In this document: positions 91 through 64,000 of the stretch, in pieces
How positions within the stretch are numbered: the stretch's first letter is position 1
Layout of the letters: the number at the start of each line of letters is the position of its first letter
DNA from: Amoebophrya sp. A120
Taxonomy: Eukaryota; Protista; Dinoflagellata
DNA length: 64,000 bases
Reading direction: 5' to 3'
Assembly: GCA_905178155.1 (NCBI GenBank)
Contig: CAJINV010000012.1
Span: forward strand, 802,004-866,003
Notes under the pieces: model-generated
What the model saw: the letters and a program-made list of their open reading frames with translations, nothing else
Told to the model about the DNA's origin: nothing
Database searches by the model: none
Position numbers and translations under genes: made by a program

Positions 91-3000
91 TTATCGTCCA
101 TTTCCCATCCTTCTTCCGACTTCCTCAGTACTAGACTCATATACCTCGATGTACCTCCGTCCCAGCATCGCGTTGTGAAATTTGCTCACCGCGTCCCGGA
201 CATCAGACGCGTGGCGGAGCTTCACGTAGGCCTGGCCGGTGGCTCGGTTGCCGTTCTGTGATGATGTTGCGAGACGGTGGTTGTAAATTTCAATTTGTCA
301 TGCGAAACCAAAATGCCATGCATACGATGTCATGCGCATGCAGCAGAATGTACATCTACATTTTCATTTTTATGTTCTATACCTTTTCTATAATCACGTC
401 CTTGTCCGCCTGGACTCCGTAGCCGAAGCTTTATCCTGTGCAAAAGTATCGCGCTCGTACTAATTGCGTTTATGCATTACAAATCTCTTTACTAAGGCGA
501 ATCCGCATCACAATTTGATTTGTAATGCTAAGTGAATTTGTAATGCAATTTATACTAGTAAGTACGATACTTTTGCAGTTCATAAGCTCAAAAACTCTGC
601 CACGTCGTGCTCGGTAGACTCGAATGGCAACCCGCGGAGTCGTATCAAACGCAAAAATGTCTGGGTCTGGAAAATCATGCTGCATATTTCTCATGGCCCA
701 TGACGCCTGTAATGCTTGACCTAGCATCGCAGACCTCCTGATCGATGCACCTTCCGCATGAGAAATGGCCTGTCCGTGTAGCAAAAACTGCACCCCTCTT
801 GTTGCTGGTCATGCAAAAATCCAAATTTTTTTAGAGTCCAAAAACAGCATGACAAGTTGCAATCTTCGAGACCCAGACATTTTTGCAGTTGATAAGTCGC
901 AACCAACCGTAATTGTCTCCGCCACGCGATCGACTGTTGCCACGGGACCCTCGTGGGGCTGTTTTTGATTTTCATTTTTTTATGTTTATTTGCATTTCGC
1001 AAAAACTAACTTTACCACTGTGATTGTGCTTGAATGCATGACAAGCCGCGTAGTTCCACTTTTTTTGTTTGCAACACAAATCTTTCGCAAAATATTAACG
1101 AATTATACGTGATCTCCTCATATCGCGCTCGCGGCCGCCGTCTCGTCGCCCTCTGCCTTGCGTTACATCGATGTATCGCTCCTCCATGTGTTTTTTATGG
1201 AGGCACTTCACTGCATCAGCAGCATCGAGGTGACCTGATTTAGTGTTGGATATCCTGCATTCGTTCGAAAGTAGATATTCGTGGCCGCGGCCCCTTGCCA
1301 TTAAGCTGCAAGCATTCCATTCACTCGAGCGGAATTTGCTGCATCAAGAATGTAGTAGAAGACAGACTGACATCACATCAAAGTCATGAGGATGTCGCAC
1401 AGAGAAGAGCTAGAGCAAGGAAGGGCATCAACAAATATAATCAAAATCCATAGGTGTATCGTCGATCTAATACTCAGCATCTTCACTAGCGCACTTCCCG
1501 CTGGTCTTCCGTCCCGGCCCATTGTTATGTACACCTGCTGTGCCTCGATCATAAACTCTGGCTCGAAGAAATTCACCACGTCCCTCTTCGTCGATCTAAA
1601 CGGAATCCCGTTCAGCTTCACCACCAGCGGATCGTCCTCTTCCGGTGTGTCGTGGGCGACGTTAGGGATCTGGTAACTTGATTGTCGGCTCCGGTCATCC
1701 CTCTCGTTACCCTTCTTCCCGCCCGCAGATCCGGAGTTGAAGGAGCTATAGCTGTCCTGTTGCCAATATGAATTGCAAAAGTATCGTATTCATCGTATAA
1801 ATGCATTACAAACTTCCTCATTATGAGAGATAAAATTTGTAATGCTGATTTACCTTAAGAGATAGATTTGTAATGCATGATTGCAATACGAGTACGATAC
1901 TTTTCCACAGGATAGCCAGCCCTTCTTGCCGAAGTCGCCTTTTCCTTTTTTCCCCTTGTCCTTGCCGTCCTTGCCCTTCTTTCCTTTTCCCTTCTTACCA
2001 CCGCCCTCCGGCTCCCCAGTGCCCACCATGATGCCCTGGGCACCATAGTACTTGGAGAGTTCGTCGATGTCTTGTTGCGTGCCCTGGGGACGAGTTGATG
2101 TGTAGTGGAAGTTGAAAATGGTACTTCTAATTTGTTGAAGTTGGTACATCAATGCAAGGTCAAGGTTTCTAAAACTACCAAGGTGGTTGATCTGTCATGC
2201 GGGGAAAAGAAAAATGCAGAAAAAAAATCACTCCATGTACTAAAATACCTTGAACAGCTCCAAGTATCTCCCCCCGACAACTTCCCCGGCTTTCTCTGTG
2301 CAACACTGGTCGCGCGTTTCTTTATCATTCAAAAACATCCAACAGTTTCCGGATCTTTTCCCGCCCTTTTTACCGGACATGAAAACCTCAATCAGAATGT
2401 CGGCGGGTGTAACAGCTGTTGTAGTTTTTGACGATATTTGTCATGCGAACTCAGTGATTCATGATATTCATTCTTCCAGAAGCATTTCATGCTGGTTTGT
2501 AAAAATCCTTCTAGTACAGTGTTCTACTAAGTACTTTGAGTCACAGAATTCGTTTATAAAAGTCCATTTTACCGTATTCCGCGAAGATTGTCGCGATGTC
2601 CTCTTCCGACACGTTAAACGGCAACCCTCTCACTTTGATCACGTTTTCATTCGTGATGTTCATGCCATTCGGCAGGTTCAACACGCCCGACACCGGAATT
2701 GCGGTCAAGTACTCCAACACTTCAGGGGCGGTTTCCGAGGAAATTAACCTGTGCCTCAGTTTGTCCTTATGTGCGCCGTCGGAAGCCAGGACCTCGATGA
2801 ACCGGTTGCCCATATACTTCTTGTGGTACGCCAGAAACTTGTTAAACTCGTTCTGTTGTGTGGTTTTTTGTTTCAAATTTTGAAGATGAATTGCGGCGTT
2901 TGATGCATGAACATGGAAACCTCAAATGGGTTCGCATCACAACAAGTCAATAAGAAAACACAAAGTGGAAACATGAAACAAGAGATGATGAAAAGTCTAC

Positions 3001-3546
3001 TTATTCATCATCAACATTTTTCGCATGCCAAAAACTGTGAGCCAGAGGGAAATATTAGGTTGAAGGTTTTTAGCTTCGCCTGGTGCAGCTACGTGGCCCG
3101 ATAGCCGCCCACACCCAAGAGCCTACCTTTCCACCTAGCCCACATGCTCCTTCCCAAACCATATCCGGAGCCAAACCATATAGAGTCGAAGCGATTTTCA
3201 TTTCCACGATGTTGAGATGTTGAAGATGATTTTAGCCCTTAAGGCTCTTGTTTCCCGAGACGATCTCTTCACTTCTACCATTTCTCGTTTCTATTATCCC
3301 TGAAGATCCAGCGCACATGATAACCACCTCGCATAAGAAAGAACCCAGCATCATCTTTACCTCATCCACACAGTCGACATAGCACTCCCCCGCGTGTGGT
3401 TTGGTCCCTCCCGGACGATCAGCGAGAAAATGAATGGCCGCCTCGTCGACCTGACCGTCGAAGAAGTCGACAATCGAGACCGCGTTGGCCTCGAAAGGCA
3501 GGCCGCGGCAGCGGACGCAGAGCCGCTTGGGCATGTGGTCCACCAT
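91..3546 (-). CDS. Multi-exon hnRNP F/H / ESRP-like protein with several quasi-RRM domains
   Basis: Repeated qRRM motifs: VRCRGLPFEA, KKYMGNRFIEV, VIKVRGLPFNVSEEDI, VKLNGIPFRSTKRDVVNFF, LRLRGLPFE (restored after removing 643-894), MLGRRYIEVYES; stop at 91-93. Mix of GT-AG introns (e.g. 256-382) and introners. Confidence 0.85.
432..584. mobile_element. Introner family B
   Basis: TATCCTGTGCAAAAGTATCG...CGATACTTTTGCAGTTCATA; TSD AGCTT/AGCTC; removal restores frame. Confidence 0.9.
643..894. mobile_element. Introner family A
   Basis: TATCAAACGCAAAAATGTCTGGGTCT...AGACCCAGACATTTTTGCAGTTGATA; TSD AGTCG; splits LRLRGLPF. Confidence 0.95.
1767..1914. mobile_element. Introner family B
   Basis: Family B ends; TSD GCCAA/GCCAG. 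Confidence 0.9.
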
Positions 3547-4952
3547 TTTGGCTGATGCTGGCGGAGGTAGTAGAAGTAGATGAGAGATCCCGTATAAATA
3601 CTGCTCGTCGTGGTGCAGCTGGTGCTTGTAGCTGCGTCTTGACCCTCGTGCTGCCCGTCGAGTATTGAAAGCGGCCCAGTGTACTTCTAGAAAGCTTCCC
3701 TTCTTGTCCACCCAGAAATCCCGACAAACCTCCCAAGAACAGTTGTCTCCTGCCCGATGATTAGACTACTTATCCCGAAAGAGTCCCGCGAAAACCGTGT
3801 GATTTAGCCCCAGAGTGTTTTATCTCCCCTGGATGCAGTGGTCCAACAAGATTCGAAATCGAAAAGTCCCGAACCCGCCCGCAACCAAATTTGTTTGCTT
3901 TTCAATAATGTCCCAATTGCAAGCAGCTTGCTGTTTCAAGTCGAATTGCCCACAAATGAGTTGCAAATGTTGTAGAACCTACCGGTTTTTACCACCACCC
4001 TGAAAAGAAGTGCAAATATATCAGAAAACAAGCTTATAAATTGTGATCTTCGGCGCTTCTTCTAAAACGTCGAGCGGGTGCAATTTATATATTCCCTTCC
4101 TTCTTGCACTTGCACGGCCCTGGTTGCATTGAAATCAGGATAGGATTGGGAAACGAGAGTGTAAAAATATCAGAGGAACGCACGCGAGAATCGAGAAAAC
4201 CTCCAGATCCCAACTACCCAGATTTTTTTTGTTCCGTGAGAGCGGACTGCATTTCAGTCCAGTGGTACAACCATCTCCATTTATTTGGGAGCTAGATTTC
4301 AACACTTTTGCCCTGATTGCATGTTGTTCATTGTCCCATCAACATGTTCTTGAAGAAGCCTCAGCCTGCCACCACTTTTGAAACCCAAGTCGTGGCGAAG
4401 CGGCTAGTCTAGTAGATTTTATTCTATCAATTGCCGCTTATGATGATCCCTGCGCTTGCAGCTCGCTAGAAAATTTGAAACTCTTGGTAGTGCTCGCCCA
4501 AAGTAACCTCCTGCTGTTGTATCTAATTCTAATCTACAGCCCGAAATAAAAATACCTCCCGGGGGGGATGCAAGCAGTCTTCAGACCCGGACATAATCAA
4601 GGAACATTTCCAGTTTGCCTTCGACATACTCGCAAAAATATGGTCAGACCGGGAAACATTTCGAACACGTGGATTTTTTCTGTTCTTGATCTCATTCATG
4701 AGAAAGAAAGAGAGCAGACGCCATGCTATCAGCCATGTTACGTCGCCTACTCTTCAAGGCACGCGAGGGCAGCTCGGTGCAGTCTTAGTTTGTTTTTATT
4801 GATTTTGTATTTGATGCGAATCAATTGCACTTTCAATGCGTCCAGATTGAAGCAATACTGATCACATCAAAGCAAAGGCAGTCGTTTATTATGTCGCTTG
4901 TTGAAGTTCTTCTGCTTGTTCAGAGGATCATTTTTTGGCGAGATGAAAATTG

Positions 4953-6166
4953 CTACGCAAAATATCCCTCCGTCGGGTCCTTGACCGATCTCAAAGGCAT
5001 GGTTCCGTCGACACTTGCATCAAATGCAAAAGTGTCTGGGTCCGGGAGATTGCAAGACTTGTCATGCAGGTTTTCCATGACCCACGAGATCTGGAATGCG
5101 GGGCCTCCCATGACAGATTCTGTGGGGTCTCTATCATGCCTATCCTGCATGAGAAACTCCCTCTTAACTTGACCGAAAGTGGACAGCTTTTGGCACTCAT
5201 GCAACATCATTTTTGCATGGTTCAGATTTAGCATGACAAATTGCATCTTTGCAGACCCAGACATATTTGCAATGCATAACTTGCGTCTTTCTGCGCCCCG
5301 GCTTGTGACATCAGGTACTGATTTATGAATGTGCACAACTCCCCCTCCCCTTCATTTGTCATGCAAAATGTCGAATCGAGGCTGTGCCGCTTAGCACTGT
5401 TTGCATGATAAGTTCTGACAGCCCAAATAGCAGCACTACAATCCTGGCACATCTGTCATGCTAAACATGCAGTCTCGCTGGCACTTGTATTGCCGTTCAT
5501 GCTATAGCTATACAAATGAGGGGGAGGGGGAGTAGTTGTGCACTCTCATATGATTTAAAAAATATTTGGACTCCGTCCACCTCTGTGCGCACCGCCAGAC
5601 ACAGGTCTTCTGCGAGCTGGAGAGTTGTTTGGACGGGGCGCCGGGGTTGCACTGCTGGTAACACCTGGAAGAGAGCTTCAACATCTCTTTCTGCTCTTTC
5701 ATCACTTCCGCAAGCTGGTTTGGGTATCCAAGAAAAAAAGTTCGTCACGATCACTCATGCGCATTCTTGCAATACAAAATTGCTTGTCATGCGTAAAAAT
5801 GCATTACAGCCAAACTTCATTACGGATTTCCCTAGTGTTTCTGCAATACAAGGAAACTTTGTGATGCTGAGAAAATTTGTAATGCAAAACCTGCAAGTTA
5901 GATACTGTGACAAACTTTTTTCTCTCCATATTGAGGTTTTTTGATTTATTGGAATTGGTGAATCATGGTTATGGAGGGCTATCTACTTCAATTCGAATCG
6001 GGCGGGATGTGGTACTAGTACTGCATCACAGCAGGCTCAGCTAGTGAGCATCTACATCTCTTCATAGGTATGAACTACCAAAATTAAGAAGTAGAAAAAT
6101 GACCTCTACTACCTGCAGCACTGCAAGCTGCTGCTGTTGCGCCGCTGTCAGATTTTGGTCCTGCAT
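4953..6166 (-). CDS. Small Tim (Tim8/9/10/13 family) mitochondrial intermembrane-space chaperone
   Basis: Spliced MQDQNLTAAQQQQLAVLQ|LAEVMKEQKEMLKLSSRCYQQC...KTCVWRCAQRWTESKYFLNQYL; twin CX3C motif; one GT-AG intron and two introners. Confidence 0.85.
5018..5278. mobile_element. Introner family A (CATC left end)
   Basis: Family A TIRs; TSD ACTTG. Confidence 0.9.
5324..5550. mobile_element. Introner family C
   Basis: TATGAATGTGCACAACTCCCCCTCCCC...GGGGAGGGGGAGTAGTTGTGCACTCTCATA; TSD TGATT; removal gives FLNQYL. Confidence 0.95.
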
Positions 6167-6521
6167 TTCGGTGGAACTCGCGGGACACGTTCCCTTGCAG
6201 CCGGCTGCTTACTGACGCCCGATAGTTTACTGCTTACCGTGCTATCTACTCCCGTATACAACTCTGGCTTGCGAAAAGAATGCAGTGGAGGTGGACATGG
6301 GTCGTTCTTTCTCTAGTCTCGAATTCGAAATGCTACTAGACGCAAGAAGTGAAGATGGTTTCATCGGTTTTGAACATGTTGAAGAATATGAAATAATCAA
6401 CTGGGATAGCAAATTACCTTTTTTACAGCATTTTGAAGAACGTCAACTTCATGCTGCGCCTGCATCTGCATGGTTAGATAGATACAAACCTCGACCTGTG
6501 GTCGCTGAAGCATCATCGATT

Positions 6522-7333
6522 TACTGAGTGGAAAATTTCACAAATACAAATATCTGCAAAAATTGGCCTTTAGAGGGTTCAGGGCTGCTGGGAGGGGGTC
6601 CAGGGTCTGCGAAACGCAACGCCGGCGAGTCGAACAGCAGCACAGCAACAGTGCGCGGCGTTCTTCTGTCCGGCAAGGTCCGGAGGGTTTGGCGTCGCTG
6701 GAGGCCATACCGGACGACCACGAGCATGCATGTACTTCAACAACAAAATCAGAAGGCTGCTTCCTTTCCTTTTCGTCGAATCCGCCGATGCGGTTTGTCG
6801 TTTAGCTCGTGATTGGAGCAAAAAAACGCTATTCCCACTCGGTAACTTTCCACAAATGAACAGACCCGACCCCTCCGGAGACCCCAAGATCTGGGGCCCT
6901 TCGGAACAACCAAACTCCCAATTCCCGCTTGGTAACTTTCCACAAATGAAAAGGCAGGGGGGTCCGGCGACCCCTGCCGGAGAGGTCGCCCGCGAGCATT
7001 TTTCTGCGTCATTTTGATGCGATTTTCCCCTTTCGGCGATTCGCCGCGACCTATTACTGCCTCCGCATGCGCCGCATGGCGCCGGAGTTCCGGGCACCAT
7101 GGCGCGGCCCCAAGAGCCCTAGTGCCGCCCTGCTAGGCGGCCCGCGCTGGTGCGACTTTGGTCGGGTTAAATGGCGACCGCCTGAGATGAATGCTCTGGC
7201 GCCCCTCCCAAGGATGCCCGACAGGGCCTGAATTGCTGAAAAGCATAAAACTGGGCGCCTGCTTCTCTGCAGTTTTGTCCTTTAAACATCAACTTTTGCA
7301 GATCTTTGTATTTGTGAAATTTTCCCCTTAGTA
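6522..7333. mobile_element. Intergenic non-autonomous TIR element (TA...TA, 5-bp TSD)
   Basis: About 40-bp TIR TACTGAGTGGAAAATTTCACAAATACAAA; perfect TSD CGATT; internal direct repeat GGTAACTTTCCACAAATGAA. Confidence 0.9.
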
Positions 7334-8034
7334 CGATTGAGAACTTACTTACTAGCAGTTATCTGGAGCAACTCAGGGAGACTCAGCGACGATCCAATCT
7401 TGCGGCCAAACGGCAAACCATGGATCTTCCTCGCTGCAGCAGGAGCACAACTACACTGAGTGTACTTCTCGAGGAGCGCTTTTACTGGACAGGAGAAAAA
7501 AAAATTAGCGTGATCTTCCGGTCGTCACCGTCAGGAGATTAGTAGAACAACGCGCTTCAACAACTACTCCAGCACCTTCAGAACAGCACCACGCTCCGGC
7601 TCGGTCGGACTTGTTATTTCAGTTCTTTCACATACGAGATTGCTGTGTCAGTCCTGTGCGTGCAAAAATGAGTACAGTAAACAAAAAGCGCGTCGCTCGG
7701 TTTTTTCGGTTTTTTGTTCATCTTCAGCTTTCATACAACAGTAATTCCAGGCTCTAGCTCGTAAGTCGTAGCGCGGAATAAACAAGACTTCTTTGAAGGT
7801 TTTTTGGTAATCAATGGTATTGGTTAGAGGCAAAAAGAAATCATTAATAAGTAGAAAATCTTCATCAACGATTCGTAGTAGATTGCTCCTGGAGCAGATC
7901 ATTTTCAAACTAAAGAACTGGAAGATAGCGCCAGCAGTGGTGCCACCACTCCACGTTCATTATCATTAAAAGTCGCATGCAAAAAAAGCATCTGTTTCTA
8001 CTTCATTTCTTTATTTATTCAGTGATTCATCTCT

Positions 8035-11000
8035 TCACTCATCCTTCTGCTTATCTTTATTCCCACCAGCAGCGCCAGCTACCTGCTTGTTTTTCTGAAG
8101 TTGCGATGTCTTGGTCGCAGCGTTCGCTTCCACGCGCCCAGCACTAGAACCTGCAGCTTCTTCCGTACCAGCCGCACCATCACCTCCACTATCCCCTTTC
8201 TTCTTCAAAAATCCCTTCACAGACCTGACCACCGCTTTCAGCAACACTAGCGACAACCAGACCACGAAAATCCAGCCAATCACGGTTCCGAGAATGCTAA
8301 GCCGCACAGCTGTCTCGATGGAGTTCTTGTTCTCGAGAAGGCGTTTCTGGAGGTGTTTTAACCGAAGTTTCGCGGTGGAGGCGTCCGGGTCTGTGTCTTT
8401 CGTGCTTTTAGTATTCTTCTTGTTGTTCTTCCCAATGGAGGCTTTGTTCGCCGAAGTTGAACCTTCTTCCTCATCCAGTCCAACCTCCTTTATCGCTTTC
8501 GCAACGTTGCAGTCCACCCCCTGGTACACCGCATTGAATAGATCACTCAAATTTGTTTCATTTTCTCCATCCTCGTCCCCGACTGCAAGCAGCATCATCA
8601 AGGTTGAGGGAGAGAAGATCCTCAGCATAACCACCGAACTCGGCTTGGAAGAGGCCACTTTCCAAGAGGCACTGGCCACATCCCGCTTTATCACGCAATG
8701 ATCCAACACGGTGGACACCAGCTGCAAAACCAAACCCGCAATCGAAGTTGTGGCGTGCAAAAAGTTCGGCATGAGCAGTTCCTGGCCGTCTTCCCGCTCC
8801 TGCATCAGAAACTTCAACTGCCGGAAGAGGGAGTCGGGTATTAAGAGGAAAAATCCCCCCTCCCCGTATCGAAAAGGTATGTTTCCGGAAATTTGTGTTG
8901 CTGATTTGAGACCACAAATCACGTCTGTGTTGCAAGAAGGCAACTCCACAAGCTCCGCAGCATTGTGCGGGCGGTCTGTGATGCTGATGGGCCTACAGCA
9001 CGGACGTTTCTCATGCTAGACGCCTAGGCCAGAACCTCTCTACTCAGGCTTAGTATGGGGCTGCATTCCTCTCCAGCAAGACAAATCTTATTTGTGTACG
9101 CAAATCCTGCATTAGAAACTTCGTTTTGATATGGGGAGGGGGGATTTTTCCTACTTTTGATATCGGGGAGTTCTTTCTTGCTGTATTTCGCCTTCAACTC
9201 GTTGCAGTAGACGATTCTCCATCCTGTGCAACGGTATCGCACTCGTACTAATTGCAGATATGCATGACAAATCCAACCTTCTACCACAAATAGCATGACA
9301 AATTGCATTTTTGTTCTTGCGAAAATTATTTGTAATGCAATTTATACTAGTACGATGCTTTTGCACAGCATATCCTCTTCGCGATCTCCGGGTCGAAATG
9401 CTCGGACGACGCAGGAGCTGGTTGGTTATGGTTTTCGCCTTCCTGCTCTTTTCCGTCTTGTTTAGAAGATTTCGAAGCAGCACGACCAGCAGATTCCGAA
9501 GACCCGGACTGTGATTCATCTCCTGAGTCTAGTGTGGCTTTATTTGATGTTCCTTTTCCGCCTTGATTTGTTTTTACATACTTCGATTTGTTCTTGTTCT
9601 TTTTCGCCAATTTCTTCAGTCGTTTCTCCTCTTCCTCAGCCTATTTATGACAGTGCACAACTCCCCCTCCCCCTCATTTGTATAGCATGAAGTAGATGAA
9701 CGGCAATACAAGCATCAGGAAGAAAAAGAATGACGGTTTTGCATGACAAATTTGCACTGGAGTGTAGTGCAGCTATTTGGGCTACCAGAACTTGTCATGC
9801 AAACAGTGCCAAGAGGCAATGTGTGGATTGGGTGCGTTGCATGACAGATGAGGGGAGGGGGAGTTGTGCATTGTCATACCATTCCTCGACCTGTTCACAG
9901 TACAGCACCGCAGAGTGTCCGAACAGACCCGCCTTCTCGTAATTTTCCGCCGCTTTGTCCCGGTTCCCCGTCCGCAGCGCGAGTTGAGCGGCGCAGAGAA
10001 AGGGGGATTCGATGCAGGAGGCGGATTCGTGTTTGTAGATTTCCATTTCCTCGCTGGGAGTGGTTGTAATGGTCCCTGTGAACAAAGGCAGCTGCTGCAC
10101 CTCCGGCGATAGCTGCTTGCCAAGCACAAGCTGGTCGTGTGCCGGAGTACTCGTTGTTGTCCCGTTCGCCACTAACTCAAACGTGATCGCCGATTGATCG
10201 CCCGCCACGTCCATGCTGTCGCAATTTTCGCTCAATTGGCAATACCCGGACTGGTAAAACGTCAGGAACCTACACACTTGCCGGTCCTTGCACTCCCGGA
10301 CGCAGGACTGGAAATTGTGGTCGCCCTCGTTGTAAAGCCATTTTTGCTTGCCCTTTTTACAGTCGCCGGAAGGGCAGCAGAAAAAGTACCGGGAGAAGGG
10401 AAGGAGAAGCTTGTCGACGTCCACTTGCGAGGTCATGGATGAATCGACTTCACCGGCCTGCGTTAATACGGACGACGCTTCCGTATTGCTGGCACGACTA
10501 CTGCTTCCCGAGTCTCCACCTCCGAGCGAAAGCATGGACTTGATCATGGAGCTTGCAGTCGATTTTATTGTTCCAAGATCATTCCCTCCCCCCGTTAAAT
10601 ACTGCTCGATATCACTTTTCGAGAATTTTGACAACAAATCCACCGCCGACCTGGCCGCCAATTCGTGCCCCGTTTCCGCTATCAACCCGTACACTAATGC
10701 CGCTCCGGGAGACACCCGGCTCGTCGACAGCCCCCGGGATTTTGAGAAGTAAATCTCCTGCGTCCTCGTCGCGATCGCGTACATTAGCCTCGACACGGGT
10801 TCCATATCGTACGCCGCGTTTAAGAGGTGCTTTAACATCGGGCAGAACAAAGCGGATTGTTTTTCTCTCAAATCCAACAACCGCACCACCATGTACTCGT
10901 ACCTCTTTTCCGAGGCCATGGTTAACACCGCCAGCTGGTCACTCGCCTGCTGCGATTCCTGATAGGAGTGTAACAAAAGCAACGCCTTCCAGATATCGAC

Positions 11001-14000
11001 AGGAAAAATCCCCCCTCCCCATATCAAAACGGAAATCTGTGATGCAGATTTGTGGTCACAAACCAGCTTTGTGATGCTAGAAGGCAAGAGATGCAGACTG
11101 CAGTGCTGTCTAGCGTGGGAAAGCCTTGCAGCTCCAGGATGACAGGAGGCAACTGGAAGTGTGAAACAGCATGACAGATTGCCTGCAATTTAGGCCGCAG
11201 CTTTGTCTCTTGGCCTTCTAGCAATACAAGTCGATTTGTGTACTCAAATACAGCATCACAAATTCGCGCATCTTCCGTTTCCGATATGGGGAGGGGGGAT
11301 TTTTCGTTTCAATACCAGATTTTCACGTTCGCGGCAATCCGACCGTGGACTTGCACGGCCAGTTCTAATATCAAATGTAAAAATGTCTGGGTCTGGAAGA
11401 ATCATGCTGTTTCTGCATGACACAGAAGGACTGGCATGGAAGCTCTAGCATCACAGGTTTCGAGAAGCTTCCGCAATGCCGAATCCGCATGACAAATCCT
11501 CCACTTTGGTGACAGAAGTGAGCAGCTTTTGCTGCCTATGCATCAGAGATTTTTGTGTGTTCTGAAATGCGCATCACAAGTTACATCCTTCCAGACCCAG
11601 ACACTTTTACACTTGATATCTAAGTAGTAAAGCGCCTTCTCCAAGTCATAGGGTCTGATCCGCAGGACGTTTGCCAATTTTTGCTCGTCGGATTGTTTGT
11701 CCGCCGCGTGATTCTTATCGTTGCTCGGGGTGCTCCCCACCGCAACAACTTCCCGCATGTACTCATCCGCAAGCATCAAAGCCGCGTTTCCATCCCCAAG
11801 ATCCGCGGCTACCTTCAAATATTCCCCCGCAGTCTGTCGCATGTGGGTATGACGTCGCGTCATGTCGTTTTTGTGGATCGGGTGGTAGTCGTTTTTGGAC
11901 AAGTATTTGTCGATGAGTTTTTTGTCGTCGTATTTGGTCGCGAAGACGTAGAACTGGCACATCGCGTAGGTCGAAATCACCTCGATGTTGTCGGATAATT
12001 CGATGTTTTTCGGGATAAACCGCGCGACTTTTCGGTCTTCATTGGCCCAAACAGGTTTCGTCCACCCCGCGCGGGTTTTGAAGTCCGGCATCGGGACCCC
12101 GTGCTCTTTTTCATATGCGTCGCCGTACAATAGAGGTGCTTGTTGCTCCACGATCGTGGCGCGGACGTCTTCTAATTCTTCGTCGGTCACGTCGAACTCC
12201 ACATCCAACACGTTCTTCACCTCGGCCATCAAGTCCACCCCTTTCGTAACGTCCCCGGCTTGCACGGCGATTAGCGCGAGTTGGTAGGTATGCACTGCAA
12301 ATATGTCTTGTCTGGGTCTGGAAGATTCCTAGATTTGTCATGCATATTAGACACGGCTCGAGACTCTGTGATGCATGGGCTGGAACAGGCCCTCTTACCT
12401 GTCGCGCAAAAACGCAGTCTGTCATGCGGAATACGCAGCAGGAGCAGCAGCACATATTTTTACCAGCCCATGCATTATTTTGTCATGCTTGGCTGCGTAT
12501 TGCAGTGCGCATACCGTTCAGCTGTAGCATTACAACTTTCCAGACCCAGACACATTTGCAATGCATAGTAGGTCGCCTGCCACGACCCCTTGGTGGCGGC
12601 CTCCGCGAACAGCTCGATGCCTTTCTCCTGGTCTTGTCTCATGCGGATGTGCTCCTGGGAAAGGCTCAGGTTGAGAAAGAAGAGGAAAAGCACGAGGATA
12701 ATTACGCAGATGACGGGGCAGTCCCGTTTTGTGAAGAGGGGTTTATTTGGTTGCTCGGCGCCGGTAGTGGGGCTTTGGCCGTCTGTAGTCTTGTTGATGC
12801 CGTCTTGGTCTTTCTCTTTATTCCCCGCACTACCTGCAGCAGTCTTCTTTTTGTCTTTATTCATGTCAGTCAGAACGAGTTTACTTTGTTCACCAGAGCT
12901 GCTACTTCCTACCGCAACAGCGTTTTTCCCGCCGTCTTCAGCAGAAGTTGCAGCAGCTCTCGGCGACTCTTTCGGGCTCGCGGTTTTGCTGTTCTTCCCA
13001 GAGGATCCCGTCGTCGATTCCTTCGATGTGGTTCTTCTGCTGTTCTTTTTCCCTTTCACTCCTGGCTCTGCACTGCTATCGGTTCCATCTTCTACTTTGT
13101 TCTTCGCCGATAAACCTCTCTTCCGACAAGCAAAACCGCAACAGCAGCAGAAGATTTTGCTACAACAACCTCGGCAGCAAACCCCGCGAAACAGTAAAGT
13201 GCAGAGAACAAGAAAAACGAGCAAAACCGCGCAGACGAAAGCGCCGCCGCCTAGAATTTCGTAATCGACCTGCAGTTGGGGCAACTGCCGGTCTCCGTAG
13301 AACAAAGCTTCCGCCGTTCGCTGCATGCCGTTCACGTCTCCCCGGAGCATCTGATCCCAATGGAAGATCGCCTCGTTGTTTTCCACAATGTTCTGCCACT
13401 CCATAAACTCCCGGGAAACCGGTTGCGGCACTGGGTTCTGCTCGTACTTCGACACCGCGTGCACAGCCGTAGAATGAACGAAATTCGACAAGGTGAAGGA
13501 TCTCGCCTTGGCATCAAAGTTTTTGCTCGCCTCTTTTTCTTATCAAATGTAAAAATGTCTGGGGCTGGAAGAATGCAACTTGTAATGCGTATTTCAGAAC
13601 ACAGAAAAGTCTCTCATGCATACGTAGCAAAAGCTGCCCACTTTCTGTCAGCAAAATAGGGGACTTGTCATGCGGATTCGGCATTGCGGAAGCTTCTCGA
13701 AACCTGTGATGCTAGAGCTTCCATGCCAGACCTTCTGTGTCATGCAAAAACAGCATGACTCTTCCAGACCCAGACATTTTTACATTTGATATTTCTCGTT
13801 TCTGCATGTTTTCCTTCTCCTCCGCACGCATGGCCGCGAGCTGGTTCTGATGACCTGTTCAAGCGTTACAATCTCAAACAACGTTGCAATAGAATCTGGA
13901 AATCTGGGATGCAAGAACTGCATGACCTAGCCAAATCTCATAGGACTGCGCATGACAAGTTCCGGAGTCCCAAACCGCACTACAATCTGGCTAAATTTGT

Positions 14001-33152: not shown

Positions 33153-33218
33153 CTTCCATTTTGCCCAGCAGTCTGGTTGCATATATATATATAGTAATTC
33201 CTTCGGCCCCTAGTAAGG

Positions 33219-35630: not shown

Positions 35631-35720
35631 TTGCCAAAACTAGAACATTGCACAGCCTGCAGTTGCCAAAACTAGAATTTTGCACATTTGCCAAAACTAG
35701 AAGAACCGTTCTTGCCAAAA
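35631..35720. repeat. Short degenerate repeat TTGCCAAAACTAGAA (three full copies, one partial)
   Basis: Read directly. Confidence 0.7.
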
Positions 35721-54883: not shown

Positions 54884-55962
54884 TTTTTTTTGCGCGAAGT
54901 TGTGCTAGAAGCAATTAGCAGGTAGGGGTACAGGTGGACAATCTAGCAATAGGAACAAACACTGCAAACGAAAAGAATGTACTTAACTATTAGCGATGCG
55001 TATGCGTACTAGTCGTGTTCGTGCCTGTGAAACTGCAACTGGCTCCGGCATAAAGTCGTTCGTACATGAAGTCGGTCGCTGCTGTCATGTCAAGTTCACA
55101 GGGAAAGCGAATGCTACGTCTAAGTTACTTGAGGTTAAGGCTAAGGATTAGGTTAAGACGGCGCTCACAAGCTGCATCGGTGTCGAGCTCTTTATCTTAA
55201 CCTTTCTTCAAGAACATGATGACGAGCTGATCATGAAGAACAGAAAGTGTAGATCTTGCCTCCACGACCGAAGATCCTGACTGCTCAGTCGCAAAGGCGT
55301 GAAGATCATCCGGAAAAATCTGCATCCGTTCTGGTCTTTGCGGTACAGGAAACTCACCAAACAGCTTCAGGCACACCTTCATCAGCTCTGTGGAATAGAG
55401 AAAGAGATCGAGGAGATCCAGGTCTAGTTCCGGATCTTCAAGACTATAGGATCTCATCGGCAAGAACTCGATCACTGGCTCTTAACCGTAAGCTTATCCT
55501 TACACTGCTGTGCTGTAACTTTGTGTTCTACTGGGCAGAATAAATCAGGCCCAGATCGTTTGTTTCCGCATGAAGATTTCGATGATCAGAGAACTTGAAG
55601 CAGAAGTAGCACCACGTTAAGATCGAGTTGCTGTTGCAGCGAAGAACAAAAAATGGACTACACACGCACACAGAAAAAGGGCTGCTGCCTCTTTAGCTTA
55701 TTCACATGAGGGAGACCCACTTTTCATCGTTCTCAATGATTGATACAAGAGCCACTGCATGTAAATTTTTGTACAAGTAGAGCCTGGCGCCGCCACGACC
55801 GGGGCTCTCGGAGGACGAAGTCTTTGTTGTTTAAACGTTCAACATCTTCGCGTTAACTGGTTCCTCAGCATTCGCATTCTCTTGGAAAGAACAAGTATAT
55901 CTATGATACTAGGGGGTGCATAAGGAGGAGTTTCAATTTCATTTTGTACAAAGAGAAAGAAA

Positions 55963-58100
55963 TCATGAAGCAGCTCCAGTCGAACCGTAATAAGGTTTTT
56001 CAACCCGATCCTCTACACTATCTTCATCCTTATTGTCATTGTCCCCAAGAACCCCAGCAACTTTTACATCAACATGTACACCGTCAGAATTGTCCCATCT
56101 CCCGAACAAATACAACGCCGCGCCGCTCAAACTAAACCCCAGCCCGAACATCTGGACGACTCTCAACTGCTTTTCCAACAGGTACAGACTCGTCCCAATC
56201 AGCAAGACCTTGTTTGCCGTCGCCTATCAAATGCAAATATGTCTGGGTCTGGAAGAGTGCATGTTTGTCATGCTTGTCTGGCGTGACTCTTAAATCTGTC
56301 ACGCACGTTACCCAAGAGCCCCGCTGTGCTGTCATGCAGAAACGCAGTTTGTCATGGAGAATAGGCAACACCTAGAAGCTCAAAAGCTTGTCATGCTGAG
56401 CCAGCACCTGTGGCCTCCTCATGATACGCCACCCAGCATCACAAGTTTCCAGACCCGGACATTTTTACAATTCATATCGCCTGGACGGAAGCGAAAAACG
56501 AGCCCGCGTGATGGATCAGCATCGTGTCGGTTAGAAACCACATTTATGCTGTGCAAAAGTATCGCACTCGTAGTAATCGCAGCCATGCATTACAAATCTC
56601 GATCCCATTCCCAAGGCAAACCGGCATGACAAACTCCATTTCTCATGCTGAGTAAATTTGTCATGCGATTTCTACCAGTACGATACTTTTGCAATGCATA
56701 ACATTGTGGTTGTGACAATTTTGATCAAGAAAGCGGTGAAAACCGGAAGCTGCGCAAATTTTTCGCCGATTATGTCCTGTAAGGGCTCATCCGAGGCGGA
56801 GGTAAATTGAATTTGCATGATCGCCGAGCCACTTTGAGTTTGTTGTAGTAGTGCAACTTCTCCAGATGTGGAAGTGGAAGTCGTTCCAGCTGCACTATTA
56901 TCCCCACCGCCAACACCCTCGTTCCTATGTCCACCGCCGCGCAAAACCTTCGTCCCAAACTCCTCGAAAGGTGCGGTCCCCTCGAACAGCAGTGACAAAA
57001 CCAACAAGCCGATCACGTTCAACGGACTCAACAGCCGGACAAGGAGAAAAGTCGTTTTCAGGTCCGCTTGTTCCTCCTTCCGGACCATTGCTTCTTCGGT
57101 GAAAAGCCGGACGGAAACCGCGAATATCACCGCGAAAACGGATAATGCTAGCCCGACCGCAGTGAAGGACATTTCTTCCGCCCCGTACCCGAACAGACAG
57201 CCGCCGACGGTGAGAGAGAGAGCCGCGATTGGAGCGGTTTTTGCGAGAACTTTCCCTTGGTAGAATTCCGCGAGGAGTAACTGCGGGATCACCTTTGTTA
57301 TCCTGTGAAAAACAGTATCGCACTCGTATTAAAACTAATCGCGACACTGCATATACAAATCAGATTTTCTACCTGCGGCTGGTCCAGTTCTAGCATCACA
57401 AAAGATTGCAAATGCGATTTCTGCTATGTAGTGCGTCGATGCTTTTACAACCGTGCATATCGGTCATTTGGATCATGGAGTGGAGAGAGGGGACGAGGAA
57501 TTTCAAAGCTCCGTTGTGCGTCGCCCCGGACCCGATGTTCAGGAAGCCGAGGGGCAGAATCTCTTTGTAGAAGTCGTAGTCTAATTCTTCCTCGTCCTTG
57601 TGCTGCTCGTCCCGAGCGGCCCCCGACGCTCTCTTGGTCTTGCTACGGTCTTGTTCACCAGCAGCGCTAGGATGAAGATCCTGCGCGTCGTGTTCATCTT
57701 CCGTACTGTGGTTCTCTGCATCACGCCCTGACTGCTCGTCTTTCCCGCCTTCATCATCCTCTACAGCTGTAACGCCATTCGGGTTATTTGACGGCGACCA
57801 AAACAACGCGACTAGAATCACCGCCAGGAAAACGACAAACGTTTGGTCGACGACGGTGAGAAAAACCGGGTAGGGGAAATCATATCTTGTGCAAAAAACC
57901 CGAAGGAGAAGGTGGTAAACGACGTAGCCGGTTGCGTTTGCGACGGATTCCGCGGCGATAGTAGCTACCGACGCACCGGAGGTAATGCGGCGTTCGAGGT
58001 GGTGGTTGGTCCTCGGCGTGATTAGTCCTGCTCTTGGATGAGGTTCAGGAGATTTTTGGTGCTCGGGATCTTCCACATCGATATGGTCGTCATCCTCCAT
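55963..58100 (-). CDS. Triose-phosphate/nucleotide-sugar transporter family (TPT/SLC35, DMT superfamily)
   Basis: YDFPYPVFLT, ILPLGFL...HNGALKFL, SFTAVGLALS, LLSPL, QMFGLGFSLSGAALY; many TM helices; three introners. Confidence 0.85.
56225..56476. mobile_element. Introner family A
   Basis: TSD TCGCC. Confidence 0.95.
56545..56700. mobile_element. Introner family B
   Basis: TSD ACATT. Confidence 0.95.
57299..57459. mobile_element. Introner family B (degenerate)
   Basis: TSD TTTGT/TCGGT. Confidence 0.75.
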
Positions 58101-59180
58101 TTTGTTCTTGGGTGTAAATAATATGAGTCGTGTGAAGCGATGATAATGATTCTTGTTCGAGCATAGTCAGAAAATGCTTGAGTTCTTCACAGCGACGATA
58201 ACGTCATGCGCCTCACTCAATGTTGCGAAGATGAAATTGAGGGCAAACTGCAACCCAAGATGACTATTGCATCTACCACTTCGATGGATTATTTGGCGGC
58301 CGAGGTTGAATGCGGTTGCTAATGCTATTGTATGTCGTAGCTTGGCTTTCCTAATTCTTCTTGTCGAAGTAGTCAAATCCGATCATCATAATGATAATTT
58401 GCCAGACGATTCAACGAATCTACTGCGAAAGACGACAGCGATTTTTTTCCCCAAGCGAAACGATATACGAAAGCGAAGCCACCAAAACCTAATGTGGCAC
58501 GACCAACACAACGACGAAAAAACTTCTCTCGCCCATCAACATCAAGAACTACCGCCCTCCAAGTGAGGGAGTGGCAGAGAACAGGCCTGTCGCTATGGCT
58601 TCTGCTTCAGCTTTCCTTGCTTCGGTTGCTGTGTTGTGATGACACTTTATCATGGTGTTGGTAGTTGTACCGCATCAATTTGATAAGCAGGAAGTCTTGA
58701 TCTTGAAGAACTGAGTATATTACCATCTATGTGTGTGATTGTTTGAAACATAATTTTGGCGAAACATAACGTATAGTCAAGTGAGTCGTTGAATTTCAAT
58801 TTCTCCTGTGGCGGTAAAAAATTCCTTGTACAGGTAGCGAATTAAGGCCCGCCAAGAAAAAATAATCACATGTAGTGCGCAGGAGCGATTTTCGACACAA
58901 TAAGAAGGCCAGGTCCTGATAGATAAACTAGACAGCTTGAGCCGCTCTTTTCCAAGAGGGAAACGTGGATGGAAAGAAGTACTTCTACTTTCTCAAAGTC
59001 CACACTGACACAGAAATTGGTTTCGCTCCTACTAGGTTCCGCCGGGAAAATTTGCCAGAGAATCATAGAAACTTCTGTCGCCAAAAATCTACCGCGCGAC
59101 AAAGCAACGAACTACAAGAACTCCTGTCCACCTCCACATGATGAAGCAGTTGCAAAAAGCAGGCCTCGAACTATGGCTTC

Positions 59181-61728
59181 CGTTGCCATTTTCGTTACTT
59201 CTGTTGCTGGGCGGTTGTGAAGATGACGCTTATTTTTTAGCGCGAAAGTACCCCTAACGAACAAATCGAAAACAAATTGCACCCATTTTCAAAAAAAATG
59301 AATTCAAAAAAGATGGTCGGGATCCTCCATTGTTCCATACAAGCAGCAGCGTTCCAGGCGGTTCACATGGTTTTCTCAGATAGAATAGGTTTGGTCTCAA
59401 TTTTGCATAGCATTCGCCGAAACCGACGGTGGACATGTTTTTTCACAGCGACCGATATTGGAAACGTTAGAAGATTTGATCAAGATTTACCACAGCATCG
59501 GAATTTGGTTACTTCGCAGTGTTTTCCCTATCGCTACGAGAACTTGCAGGACTTAGAAAGCTGAAACGATTAGCGATGGCACCGAAGGGCTTCATGGCCC
59601 GGCTGAAGGCCGGGGAGAAACTCAGCGCAGCAGATTGGGCGACGCCACCACGCGGGGGGCATTCGGATTCAGCTCCAAAGGAAGGTCGCACCCTGCCGGC
59701 TAGGCAGTTTGATGTCCCGGACCTCGACACGAAAGTTGCATGTGTGGGCCAGAAGAGTGGAGAGGAGGAGAACCGGAGCAACTCCGTCGACGGCTTCTTC
59801 AAGCACCAGCCCGCGCCGGATAGTATGTTGATGGAAATTGTAGTCGCGCCAGCATTTGTGTTGCGAGGACAGCGTGATTGATGTACGTTCTCAATCACAT
59901 CCTGCAACACAAATGCCGTCGCGCCTACGCATTTTCATCTTCATCTCGAAGTGGCACGCTCGGGCTTATTCGAAGATCGTCTTCCTCATCATGCAGTTCT
60001 ACAAGGCGGCCATGGTTAAGCTGTGCAAGTCATTTACGCCCACCCACAAGCTAATTCGTATCGAAGCGGACGCAACACCGGTCGGGCATCGGGTACAACA
60101 GAGCTACGGGCAGACGATCGACCGCAGTGCCAAGGCGTTTTTAACCATCTGTGACGTCAGCTGGCTGCTTTCGGATGTTGAACCAGAAAAAGCCGACAGC
60201 GCAACTTGGATCACCTTTAATACGCCGTCGGAGGTGCGGCTGATTCAGAAGCAACACTACGACGACCAAACGGAGACAGATATGGTTTTCGATTTGTTAG
60301 CCTCCGTCCCGGGGCTCAAGGAGGCGGCCACCGGCGCGACCGGTGTGTTGGAAGTGAGTATCGTGGTGGACGCGGCGAAGTCGAACGTGAGCGCCCTGCA
60401 CCTCTTCTGCCAGTGGGTGCACGATTTGAATCCGCAGGTCGTCTGCGTCGCCCGGTTTTGTAGTCTACATGCCGCCAGCCACTCGATGCAAGACGCCTGC
60501 AGCCTCGTTCTTTGCGACCTTCTCGGGAAAAACGTGAAGGCTTTGGAAAAGAGAATTTTTTTGGTCACCCGCCTCTACTCCGCACAGACCGCAACTATCC
60601 AGGACAACACACAAAAGATGATCGACCGGGGGCTGGTGACGGTGGAAGACGCTACAACAGAAGGGGATCCGCAGCGATCTGCTTTCCGCGAGTATTGCCA
60701 AATGATGGGGCTGGACAGCAAGCGGGTCGGGGATGACGTTGCCATTTTCGTTACTTCTGTTGCTGGGCGGTTGTGATGACGCTTATTTTATGATCTAGTC
60801 AACATCTTCTCCGACGGATAGATCATCCTATGGATGATCATCGTTGGATGTGCGCTCCGGGAGTCAGGAGGTGCAGGCGCCCGCGACCAAGCATGTGGAG
60901 AGCCTACCCCACCGGCGGAGACGCAACGCATCGACGCGACCCAAAGAACCCTACGGCACCAGCTGGAGATGAATTTGGGTACCGAACAGCCGCCCCACAC
61001 GCAAGAGTGCGTGCGACGACACCGACTGAGATGCCAAAGACTGTCACACAGCATCCCAACAAGGCTCCAAAAGGGCGAAACAAAGCGCCTTCGCCCTGGC
61101 CCTTAGCAAAATCCTTGTCAACTACCGAAACCACAAGAGCAGCTAGTGGCAGAAGCGCTGCCCAAGAATCAGCGTAAGAACGTTTAATATAGGAAATAAC
61201 TCCCCGGAAGCTCCGGCTTCACTTCGGATACGTAGTGCGCTTGACCACTCGCACACTGATGAAAGAGGTCTCAACCCTGACAACTCGGCCGGGATGCGGC
61301 CGGGGAAATGCTGGAAAGTCATCGAGCAACAAGAAGTACTCAGATCAAGAGCCCACGGGGATGAACGCGCCCCCAGGTCAAAGACCTGCATACCAAACAA
61401 CTATCCAGGAAGGAACCTTCCAAAGCACAAGAGTAGACCTCGCGGCGGTGGCCACAACGCCCGCGCAAGCTGTGTGTCTCAAACGGAAATAATAACTTCG
61501 GCGCGGGATCCTTTCCGAAGACACTGCGTGCAAAGAAAACTCGGAGCCACCCGGCACCATGACACAGGGAAAGAGAGTCCGGAGCCCATGAAAAGATTGG
61601 AGCCGTCATCTGCGACACCCTTCCGGAGATGCGCGCGAACTCACTAAGACTGCCTCTGGAGCAGTAAGCCACCGTTTCCATTTTCGTTACTTCTGTTGCT
61701 GGGCGGTTGTGATGACGCTTATTTTTTT
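59181..61728 (+). repeat. Three direct repeats of about 53 bp separated by 1.5-kb and 0.88-kb unique inserts
   Basis: CGTTGCCATTTTCGTTACTTCTGTTGCTGGGCGGTTGTGATGACGCTTATTTT at 59181, 60737 and 61673. Confidence 0.95.
59576..60776 (+). pseudogene. Truncated DDE transposase of the hAT-like (CxxH) type
   Basis: IRIEADAT (first D), SIVVDAAKSNVSA (hAT-like tDnasN..A), RFCSLHAASHS (CxxH); frame change near 59870; cut at the repeat at 60737 before any catalytic E. Confidence 0.65.
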
Positions 61729-62550
61729 ATGGTACCACATCAAGTTGATAAGGAAGTCTTGAAGAACTGGTATGTCTGAAACATGTTCAACTTCAACTTC
61801 AATCTTCTGGCGAAACTTTGCAGCTTAAGTAGGTAATCGAATCCTTGAATTTCAATTTCTTCTGTGGTAGTAAAAAATTCCTTGTACAGGTACGGAACCA
61901 AGGCCCGCCACGAAGAAATCTCGAAGAAGAATGCTCGATTGTGCGACTTCTGCGAATGTTGACGCACTGACAATAGCAATACAACAAGATACAATAAGCT
62001 TTGCAGCTTGCCGCTCTCTTGCAAGAGAGAATGGGAAACATGAATGGGTATAAAAATAAATATCAAAGCACCCACAATGATGAATCTATAATCTAAACAG
62101 CGTTCTTCAGAAAGATTTTGATGATCTTCGAGAAGATATGTTGACGTTTGCAAGTAGAAACACATCGATCACGTGCAGCCTAGATAAACTTCGTTGACTC
62201 ATTTGCATTTCATATTCCAGATACATAGAATTAGAATTCCTCTAGTCAACCTTCTGCGCACCCAGCTGGCTCCCGCCAGCACCGGGATAAAGTATACAGC
62301 TTGCCGCTCTCTTTCAAGAGGGAAACGTGGATGGAAAGAAGTATTTTCTCAAAGTCCACACTGACGCTAAAATTGGTTTCGCTCCTACTAGGTTCCGCCG
62401 GGAAAATTTGCCAGAGAACAAGAGCGACGAAGGCTCTAGAAGTACTCCTGTGGGCAAATGAATCATGGCATCATGTGCAACCTAGAAGTAGTAGACCTTG
62501 AATTTTTTTTCTCTTTGTTCAAAAGAAAACTACTACAACCTCCTCACTGT

Positions 62551-64000
62551 TTATTTATTGTCCGGCGCCACCTGGTGCGCTCCCGGCTGACCGCTCCCCA
62601 TGTTGATCCCCATCCCTGAATCACCACCAGCAGAATTGTCGATCGGCGGACTAGTCACAACGACTGTCACCGGTGGACCGACCAAATCCGCTTTTCCGGA
62701 TGTCCGTGCGGTCTCATCGACGCCTGCTCCTGGGACTGCTGAGGACGACGAAGCTGCTGCTGCGCTATTTCCCATCGGCACCATCTGTGCGGTGGTCAAC
62801 TGCGTCTGTTGTTGCTGCTGCATCTGTGGTGCTCCCTGCTCCATGTGGGATTTGGTGAATGTGTTGAAAATCTGTTCCAGACTCGTGGGGGAGATCGCGT
62901 ACTCCTTGATCTTAAACTGGACCTTCACCGATTCCAATAGTCCGAACAACTGCCCAAGTTTCTTCTGGTCGGCGAAGATGCGAAAAGTGACCTGCTCACT
63001 ACCGCCCTGCGAATCGGTGAGGAAAGCGCCGGGGAAGGTCTGCGCCACGTAGTCGGTCAGGGTCAAACGGTAGACGGATTGGGTTAACCTGATTTGTATT
63101 CATTTTATTTTGCGTTGCTAGTGCAAGACCAAGATGCTTGTCATGGAGGACAGGAGCGCGCTGTGAAGCTGGAAATGCTCTACTTGAATAGAATCCCTTT
63201 GTTCATGTTCTGACTTAGAATTATGAAAGCCGCCCGCAACCTAAAAAAGAAAATCGTATACCAGTGCAGAATCACTTTCGCCTTGCAGGTTGACGCTTGC
63301 ATCTCCAGCAGCTCGTCGTTCCGGATCTTGTCCTATCAACTGTAAAAATGTCTGGGTCTGGAAACTTGTGATGCTGGGTGGCGTCTCATGATGAGGCCAC
63401 AAATGCTGGCGCAGCATGACAAGTTTCTGAGCTCCTAGGTGTTGCCTATTCTGCATGACAAACTGCGTTTCTGCATCACAGAAAAGCGGAGCTCTTGGGT
63501 AACGTGCATGACAGATTTAAGAGTCATGCCAGACAAGCATGACAAGCCTGGGAATCTTCCAGACCCAGACATTTTTGCATTTGATATGTCCTGCGGTTTG
63601 CTGCTCAGCCGCGCCACGCTCGCATACGGACTCGCACGCGAGGCGCGAAGTAAGAATTGAATCCGCTGCTGCAGTGGCCAAACTGGGTCGTACTGGTGGA
63701 GCAGTTGGCACAGGTGGATCAGCATGATGTTACTGTTCATCGCATTCACATCATCCGGATTCAACATCGCATTGCTACCCAGAAACGTCGTCCATAGTTG
63801 TTTTTGCTCCGTGAAACTCGGGGACTCTAACTTCACGTACAAATCAAACCCGTTTCCGTACTGCGCCTTGATTTCTGGTATCGATTATGCAATACAAATT
63901 TCCCGTACATGTAAAAGATGCATCACAAATTTATTCCCCAATTTGCCGTGTGAAACTTGTCATGCTAAACTAGGATCGAAGCCAAATTTTACCATGCAGA
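62551..64000 (-). CDS. ABCA-subfamily ABC transporter, C-terminal part (continues beyond the window)
   Basis: IPEIKAQYGNGFDLYVKL; LGQLFGLLESVKVQFKIKEYAISPTSLEQIF. Confidence 0.85.
63334..63586. mobile_element. Introner family A
   Basis: TSD TGTCC. Confidence 0.95.
63886..64000. mobile_element. Introner family I, cut by window edge
   Basis: TATGCAATACAAATTTCCCGTACATG left end. Confidence 0.85.

Follow-up and report, generated by a model that had tools for sequence, protein, structure and literature searches.

The introners of the dinoflagellate Amoebophrya sp. A120 are RNA-seq-supported introns, on average 240 nt long, that make up 17% of the genome and are bounded by inverted repeats of 8–20 nt, starting with TAT and continuing through seven variable bases to AAA, and by direct repeats of 3–5 nt (5 bp in the legend to Figure S19; Farhat et al., 2021, PMC7789003). 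They were described as having 'no clear splicing signature' and the intron border was left unknown; A120 was found to possess PRP8 and the U2, U4, U5 and U6 small nuclear RNAs (snRNAs), whereas U1 snRNA was undetected and U11/U12 were reported absent (PMC7789003). Here, a 64,000-nucleotide stretch of the A120 genome (contig CAJINV010000012.1, positions 802,004–866,003, forward strand; hereafter the window) is analysed. Two of its exons match A120 proteins at 100% identity, and the 61 hairpin elements that it holds resemble the published introners in organism of origin, in TAT inverted repeats with a run of A, in their direct repeats (here of 5 bp only), in their repeated families and in their absence from transcripts. 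On sequence grounds they are the introners of Farhat et al. (2021). An earlier sequence-only reading of the window was therefore right to connect them with the non-canonical introns of Amoebophrya, and as a new system they had been anticipated by the published set.

What is new relative to the text, legends and supplementary text of PMC7789003 is a split of the target-site duplication (TSD), with the cut between its fourth and fifth bases, together with a strand asymmetry that leaves two bases invariant, a U at intron position +2 and an A at position −7. With a rough probability of 0.55, the elements are non-autonomous hairpin transposons, or miniature inverted-repeat transposable elements (MITEs), that are likely removed by a relaxed major spliceosome, by way of their hairpin and a 3' cut set by a ruler. 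The words 'branch' and 'lariat' in a splicing sense are absent from the available text of PMC7789003, whose Figures S19–S25, on repeat positions, may already contain some of the register. The available text of PMC12130899, PMC9860276, PMC11282704, PMC11453091, PMC12005148, PMC13326754 and PMC12621601 states neither a register nor a branch rule for A120, and no literature was found on non-canonical Syndiniales introns with an inverted repeat and a branch point.

Several other systems share part of this architecture. The A120 introners of Gozashti et al. (2025; PMC12130899) are likewise diverse, of the terminal inverted repeat (TIR) type, and number tens per gene. The nonconventional introns of Euglena (PMC12501133; PMC11282704) also have hairpin ends, direct repeats, asymmetric spacers and no GT-AG, but they rely on a CAG/CTG pairing motif with spacers of 3 and 5–6 nt, whereas the window elements have TAT/ATA with spacers of 1 and 4 nt and invariant bases that, unlike the Euglena motif, are not each other's partners; the euglenid signature N3CDG...CH'GN5-6|R is absent, the ends here reading N-TAT...ATA-N4. 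Introns of Fritillaria (PMC11282704, PMC13326754) are similarly transposon-derived and non-GT/AG and are processed by a conserved U2-type spliceosome, but have defined AG-AC/AG-AT ends and a retained U1, whereas both ends of the window elements are free except at +2. Micromonas and Aureococcus introners (PMC11282704, PMC7789003) are again MITEs whose TIRs and TSDs restore the coding sequence, but their splice sites are canonical, with the TSD supplying one of the two; here GT/GC-AG ends are possible, in any register, in only 24 of the 320 coding-embedded elements compiled below. Finally, the introns of Yarrowia, Trichomonas and Giardia hold the branch A at a fixed 6–8 nt from the 3' end, like the proposed A−7 (6 nt in Yarrowia and 8 nt in Trichomonas and Giardia; −6 and −8 by the definition of PMC2483917), but unlike the window elements they have retained GT and AG together with a complete branch motif that pairs with U2 (PMC2483917).

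Hairpin elements and their exact removal

A strict scan, demanding an exact 5-bp direct repeat, TA...TA ends and at least 10 of 14 terminal inverted matches, returned 39 elements, compared with 0–3 per shuffle in 30 shuffles of the window. Repeat length 5 alone exceeds background: lengths of 2, 3, 4, 6, 7 and 8 gave 20, 7, 3, 2, 0 and 0, near the shuffled values. The TA...TA hairpins with 5-bp TSDs that had been noticed in the sequence are thus real. Self-BLAST of the window showed 86 repeated intervals, and a relaxed scan with inspection raised the catalogue to 61 elements of 110–973 bp (median 250) that total 16,146 bp or 25% of the window, so that the initial estimate of about 59 elements in a fifth of the window was of the right order and somewhat low. 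Similarly, the figure of about 13 families has the right magnitude but depends on threshold, with nine multi-copy families and 10–11 singletons at 30–50% coverage and 24 clusters at 70%. The proposal that each element has its own TSD holds with small exceptions, as there are 59 distinct TSDs among the 61 (AGCTT and TGTGT each occur twice) and the two copies are identical in 51 elements and unequal in ten.

The elements have the hallmarks of MITEs, namely TIRs, a TSD of fixed length, short size, multiple copies and insertion in both orientations, the last seen in all eight families checked. Their terminal hairpins are strong (−54 to −127 kcal/mol). Although Gozashti et al. (2025) describe one A120 family with an integrase-like open reading frame and TIRs (PMC12130899), no autonomous copy was found in the window or in 532 kb of related metagenome loci, where there were two candidates of more than 1 kb: L028, a 6.2-kb candidate, was rejected as a chance pairing of inner repeats, and L044 is still a candidate. 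An Rfam search of the window gave no match. Inner insertions are present in the long elements at 21875–22551, 22591–23176 (with an internal duplicated stretch around the insert) and 42660–43632 (with an inner palindromic segment).

Most of the elements lie in coding sequence, as had been supposed, with 52 of the 61 passing a coding filter. Not every element is itself an intron, however: 5725 sits within a canonical GT-AG intron at 5715–6112, 6522 is situated between two transcript contigs, and no coding context was detectable for 33219 and 33862. Both window elements with TAC...GTA ends (6522 and 33862) are outside coding sequence.

Removal was followed over 4800–10400 in four runs (X1, X2, X4 and X5). 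Each of the joints 5012>5279, 5318>5551, 8833>9163 and 9640>9879 skips the element plus 5 nt: element 8839 is missing as 329 nt (324+5) and 9646 as 238 nt in X1, X2 and X4 (three of the four runs), and an X4 contig lacks 266 nt at 5018 and 232 nt at 5324 together with the canonical intron 5715–6112. X5 had no match over this region. The stretch contains seven elements; the three besides these four are 5725, inside the canonical intron, 6522, between transcripts, and 9220, which no contig bridges. Two deposited proteins, P0001 and P0002, agree with the element-plus-5 join at 10/10 and 17/17 junctions, respectively, the only deviation being one residue each way at unequal TSDs; 42660 is removed exactly in P0002 despite its inner palindromic segment. 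Deposited A120 gene models were built from transcript alignments (PMC7789003). The expectation that transcripts would show gaps of the element plus 5 nt without GT-AG was therefore correct at the four contig joints and at 27/27 protein junctions. Further afield, X4 contig pieces end at the element borders 29697, 43633/43894 and 46237, and X1 pieces also at 29697.

The reading frames tell the same story. Removal of elements plus 5 nt leaves a stop-free frame of 2871 codons across 19 elements, with the SpoU domain at its end, and another of 1849 codons across 10, and restores the motifs LRLRGLPF at 643 and WEYVRQ in the SpoU domain, as the sequence-only reading had noted; its five consecutive in-frame joins at 28414–29696 prove to be six elements at 28143–29696 in one 304-codon frame. 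The SpoU region is 38% identical throughout to a homologue, P0003. Open frames around the junctions are longest when the element plus 5 nt is deleted: 58 of the 61 junctions then stay open for 100 nt or more to either side, compared with 39–47 for out-of-frame deletion lengths. Deletion of 2 or 8 extra nt would also keep the frame, so the exact value of 5 comes from the repeats, proteins and contigs, since the frame test alone allows 2 and 8.

Separately, in a raw RNA run (X9) about 550 reads match 41018–41111 and 50–60 reads match 29424–29455, at 90–99%; these reads run on into foreign sequence and cover no exon, and represent related elements in the RNA of another strain or locus.

Register of the cut and strand-asymmetric ends

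Where the two TSD copies are identical they hide the cut, so that only unequal copies reveal it. Among the ten unequal TSDs in the window, five differ synonymously, one is intronic (the base-2 mismatch of 5725, uninformative because this element is inside a canonical intron) and one has no protein (38543, unequal at base 3, for whose gene a protein search found no longer protein), leaving three that are informative. At 9646, where base 4 is unequal, transcripts keep the upstream base (Trp) in three runs from two samples; the downstream base would be a stop and would split P0001. At 44492–44743, also unequal at base 4, P0002 carries the upstream base (His). At 46242–46391, unequal at base 5, P0002 carries the downstream base (Tyr), and this Tyr is conserved in P0003. 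A piece of an X4 contig also stops after the first base of the downstream TSD copy, an indirect sign in which one half of the contig is seen. The single register that fits all three sites lies between TSD bases 4 and 5, with the intron comprising N, the element and NNNN; that this 4|1 register is general across elements is assumed. As a side observation, the derived base in the intronic copy at 46242–46391 makes the donor GT, a single case and a possible step toward a canonical site.

The ends themselves were compared in a larger set. A 22-base end motif was used to fetch 129 metagenome loci (532 kb), in which the families of the window recur with identities of up to 97.6% and a repeat length of 5 bp again stands out, with 341 against 1–39 for lengths of 3, 4, 6, 7 and 8. 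Loci and window share no gene, and so there are no empty sites for comparison. Elements were called with a strand-symmetric detector that used bases 4–23 of the ends and demanded TA at one end only; it recovered 55 of the 61 window elements with zero extra calls. Strand was taken from a codon model of the flanks only, which assigned 322 of 459 unique elements, the other 137 failing the coding filter. Two of the 322 were removed because their flanks matched elements, giving a final 320 (52 from the window and 268 from the loci). One of these two (L049), a false call on inner repeats, had been the sole A−7 exception before cleaning. The 410 ab initio canonical introns called for an A−7 comparison were discarded for flat base composition and many antisense calls. 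Keeping the element would disrupt the frame in 319 of the 322; an open-frame test on the loci favoured removal (289 versus 221–222 of 391), which alone is weak.

Among the 320 elements, end position 1 has no variants at the transcript 5' end and ten at the 3' end (p=0.002), position 2 has two and four, respectively, and position 3 has ten at the 5' end and none at the 3' end (p=0.002). The asymmetry of positions 1 and 3 (Fisher p=1e-5) is seen on both contig strands and persists without the window (0/8 and 8/0 in the 268 remaining elements); within the window, the base at the transcript 3' end is not A in three elements (5018, 9220 and 13849). With the 4|1 register, the two bases that never vary are the first T, at intron +2, and the A third from the 3' end, at −7. 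The end variants are drawn from several families and bases, and because the families insert both ways each insertion is a separate orientation draw. As the invariant bases face variable ones in the hairpin, it is base identity and not pairing that is kept. This strand-asymmetric conservation suggests that a donor U, and possibly a branch A, are recognised as specific bases and in one direction, and argues less for a symmetric reading of ends and TSD.

By contrast with the invariant pair, +1, −2 and −1 follow exon composition (GT in 93/320 and AG in 22/320; dinucleotide tests p=0.76 and 0.58). GT-AG occurs at the mapped register in 9/322, and the GT/GC donor and AG acceptor of U2-type introns are not the rule here, while U at +2 is found in 320/320 if the 4|1 register holds; nor are the elements minor (U12) introns, the acceptor dinucleotides being free. 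The claim that boundaries generally cannot be GT-AG is upheld in the window, where GT/GC-AG is possible in five of the 61 elements if every element is read on the minus strand, and where 37400 (TSD GGAGC) allows GT-AG in none of its equivalent registers. No bias was seen at TSD bases 4–5, 3–4, 1–2 or 2–3, and +1:−4 shows no pairing preference (68 versus 78 expected).

Three further features of the TSDs and insertion sites may be recorded. TSD bases 2 and 4 are complementary in 61 cases versus 81 expected (322 elements; uncorrected for multiple tests), T is rare in the TSDs, and phase at the mapped register is uneven, with 140 elements in phase 0, 70 in phase 1 and 110 in phase 2 (320 elements; p ~1e-5 on 322).

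Host genes and neighbouring repeats

Every long reading frame with elements lies on the minus strand, which agrees with reports of unidirectional gene clusters in Amoebophrya. At the left of the window an RRM (hnRNP F/H-like) gene (94–3686; RRM_1 E=6e-4, just below the Pfam cut-off) carries elements at 432–584, 643–894 and 1767–1914, of which 432 and 1767 have TSD copies unequal at base 1, both synonymous. A small gene (4938–6276) has elements at 5018–5278 and 5324–5550, and its GT-AG intron holds 5725–5930. It is followed by the TAC...GTA element at 6522–7333 (812 bp, TSD CGATT), which has an A at −7 on neither strand. The P0001 gene (8038–16038; 1831 aa, no Pfam domain) contains ten elements: 8839–9162, 9220–9372, 9646–9878, 10994–11314, 11369–11618, 12289–12567, 13541–13791, 13849–14104, 15298–15576 and 15642–15753. 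A histone deacetylase gene (17657–20714) contains four, at 18202–18352, 18423–18631, 19152–19462 and 20266–20478, and a coding region at 21626–24271 contains 21661–21813, 23283–23518 and 23950–24099 besides the long 21875–22551 and 22591–23176. The 304-codon frame (27909–30030) is interrupted at 28143–28368, 28414–28561, 28659–28815, 28853–29104, 29205–29455 and 29551–29696. The stretch 33219–34516 comprises the two elements without detectable coding context (33219–33474 and the TAC...GTA element 33862–34516), and a 674-codon frame (36852–39629) has elements at 37113–37348, 37400–37666 and 38543–38780.

The 2871-codon SpoU methyltransferase frame (PF00588; 40348–54143), which we take to be Trm3/TARBP1-like, holds 19 elements: 40395–40752, 40812–41119, 41163–41427, 41615–41843, 42067–42217, 42264–42565, 42660–43632, 43900–44108, 44173–44327, 44492–44743, 45099–45361, 45436–45691, 45739–45950, 46242–46391, 46879–46993, 48043–48359, 48409–48569, 51192–51341 and 52455–52716. 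Deposited P0002 (1286 aa) is the last part of this frame and spans 17 of them; it starts at 48966, yet the frame stays open for about 1585 codons further upstream over two more elements, so that the annotation may be split or truncated. Beyond it (54311–56700) are elements at 54311–54562, 54636–54745, 56225–56476 and 56545–56700, the last two in a 315-codon membrane-protein frame (55966–57328). An ABCA-type transporter gene (63334–64000) has an element at 63334–63586, with PF23321 in the next exon, and a further element at 63885–64000 is cut by the window end.

Other repeats in the window are of different kinds. The 386-bp near-perfect palindrome at 16915–17300, which lies between two genes, has G...C ends and is flanked by imperfect A-rich repeats, belongs to a different MITE-like class that is neither TA-ended nor in coding sequence. 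Palindromic or locally repeated segments at 25292–25551, 32490–32860 and 59830–59939 lack TA ends or 5-bp repeats, and local duplications of 50–140 bp occupy 58783–59238 and 60737–62418, upstream (in plus-strand coordinates) of the first recognised ABC-transporter exons.

Candidate mechanisms of excision

Under the spliceosomal reading, a DDE transposase or integrase would have inserted the element, with its TAT...ATA ends, one way round or the other and so duplicated 5 bp of the target. In the pre-mRNA the terminal inverted repeats are predicted to pair so that the ends meet, which would likely substitute for site definition of the U1/U2AF type. The exon would keep upstream TSD bases 1–4 and downstream base 5, and the intron would be N-TAT...ATA-NNNN, in which the first T of the element would be read as the invariant U+2, with +1 free, and A−7 as the branch adenosine; the 3' cut would then be made by distance, 6 nt past the branch A, with no AG. 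Because TAT...ATA mirrors itself, either orientation would give both signals and the target would be restored without a scar. In introns at large, no donor base is needed more strictly than U+2, and an A serves as the branch nucleophile. A relaxed spliceosome is favoured on account of U+2, A−7, the fixed-distance precedents and the presence of U2/U4/U5/U6 and PRP8 in A120.

A number of observations weigh against this account. X1, X2 and X4 are contigs and not reads, and their RNA nature is guessed; the register is drawn from three sites, of which two depend on a deposited gene model; and it is from element identity of up to 97.6%, and not from shared genes, that the loci are assumed to come from this or a closely related species. 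Element 9220–9372, with its 3'-terminal G and unequal TSD, is removed in P0001 but is bridged by none of the listed contigs, and one X2 contig reads into it, so that it may be incompletely removed; one X1 contig retains 28143. The branch role of A−7 and the dependence on the spliceosome are themselves inferred, and A−7 is predicted to be paired (probability 0.76) and lacks the complementarity to U2 that surrounds a normal branch site. Of 53 TSD mismatches, 33 are synonymous, where an unconstrained intronic copy would give 36–46% (p between 0.013 and 0.002); the excess is strongest at TSD bases 1 and 5 (18/24) and may mean that the registers slip or that some other constraint acts. In the published data, the legend to Figure 3 has splice sites variable relative to the hairpin, and Table S4, which fits U+2 in both strains (nine of nine top A25 motifs begin TT and nine of nine A120 motifs have T at +2), may be shaped by aligner preferences (PMC7789003).

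The main rival, to which perhaps a quarter of the weight belongs, is a non-spliceosomal endonuclease and ligase, as proposed for the nonconventional introns of Euglena, making staggered cuts measured from the hairpin base (1 nt before and 4 after) and using U+2 and A−7 as recognition bases. In Euglena, too, the genetically defined code consists of a stem whose 5' spacer is short and whose 3' spacer is longer (N3CDG...CH'GN5-6; PMC12501133), and the absence of AG and G+1, the undetected U1 snRNA (PMC7789003) and the predicted pairing of A−7 would all suit such a route. It leaves to coincidence, however, that the invariant bases fall on the canonical U+2 and on a plausible branch position; A120 retains U2/U4/U5/U6 and PRP8 (PMC7789003), and a tunicate whose introns are mostly non-GT/AG still has a conserved U2-type spliceosome (PMC13326754). 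Improbable, though less so than the two explanations that follow, is the model of the sequence-only reading, taken here to mean machinery that recognises the hairpin ends together with the sameness of the two TSD copies and that could make the join at any point of the repeat. The excess of synonymous mismatches and the published variability of the sites (PMC7789003) speak for it and leave some role for the TSD, but 9646 is removed exactly despite unequal copies, of which the one not used would create a stop, the three informative sites share one register, and direction-dependent conservation is not predicted by it. Of that model, removal without GT-AG is supported, and the reading of the TSD less so.

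Precise excision from DNA in an expressed life stage is very improbable. The TA ends recall the TA-bounded internal eliminated sequences of ciliates, but conservation follows the direction of transcription, and contigs of a DNA-like run (X6), which are of even depth, keep the elements, as in a 3264-nt contig at 37643–40906; moreover, the joined contigs also lack the GT-AG intron and do not cover intergenic 6400–7600. Least credible of all is that the joins are reverse-transcriptase template switches in genes that are in fact broken. A strong hairpin with short direct repeats is the classic setting for that artefact, the hairpins here are of the required kind and the RNA evidence is cDNA-based; against this stand the two long stop-free frames over 19 and 10 elements, the identity to P0003 maintained through the SpoU region, and the synonymous TSD bias and strand-asymmetric conservation, which require removal that is real and selected.

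More than 60% of A120 introns are spliced with neither GT-AG nor a detectable U1. A fixed register with two invariant bases makes the mechanism precisely testable and gives gene finders a rule for these genomes. A broader proposal, made tentatively and at somewhat less than even odds, is that the A120 spliceosome may have no need of G+1, AG or U1, so that U+2, a branch A−7 and a transposon hairpin would be enough, that TAT...ATA would form a universal, scarless and orientation-independent cassette, and that the TT-NN introns of A25 would follow the same U+2 rule. If the spliceosomal reading is true, the catalytic core of splicing can be stripped of its sequence signals, and a transposon can be harmless in any gene and in any orientation.

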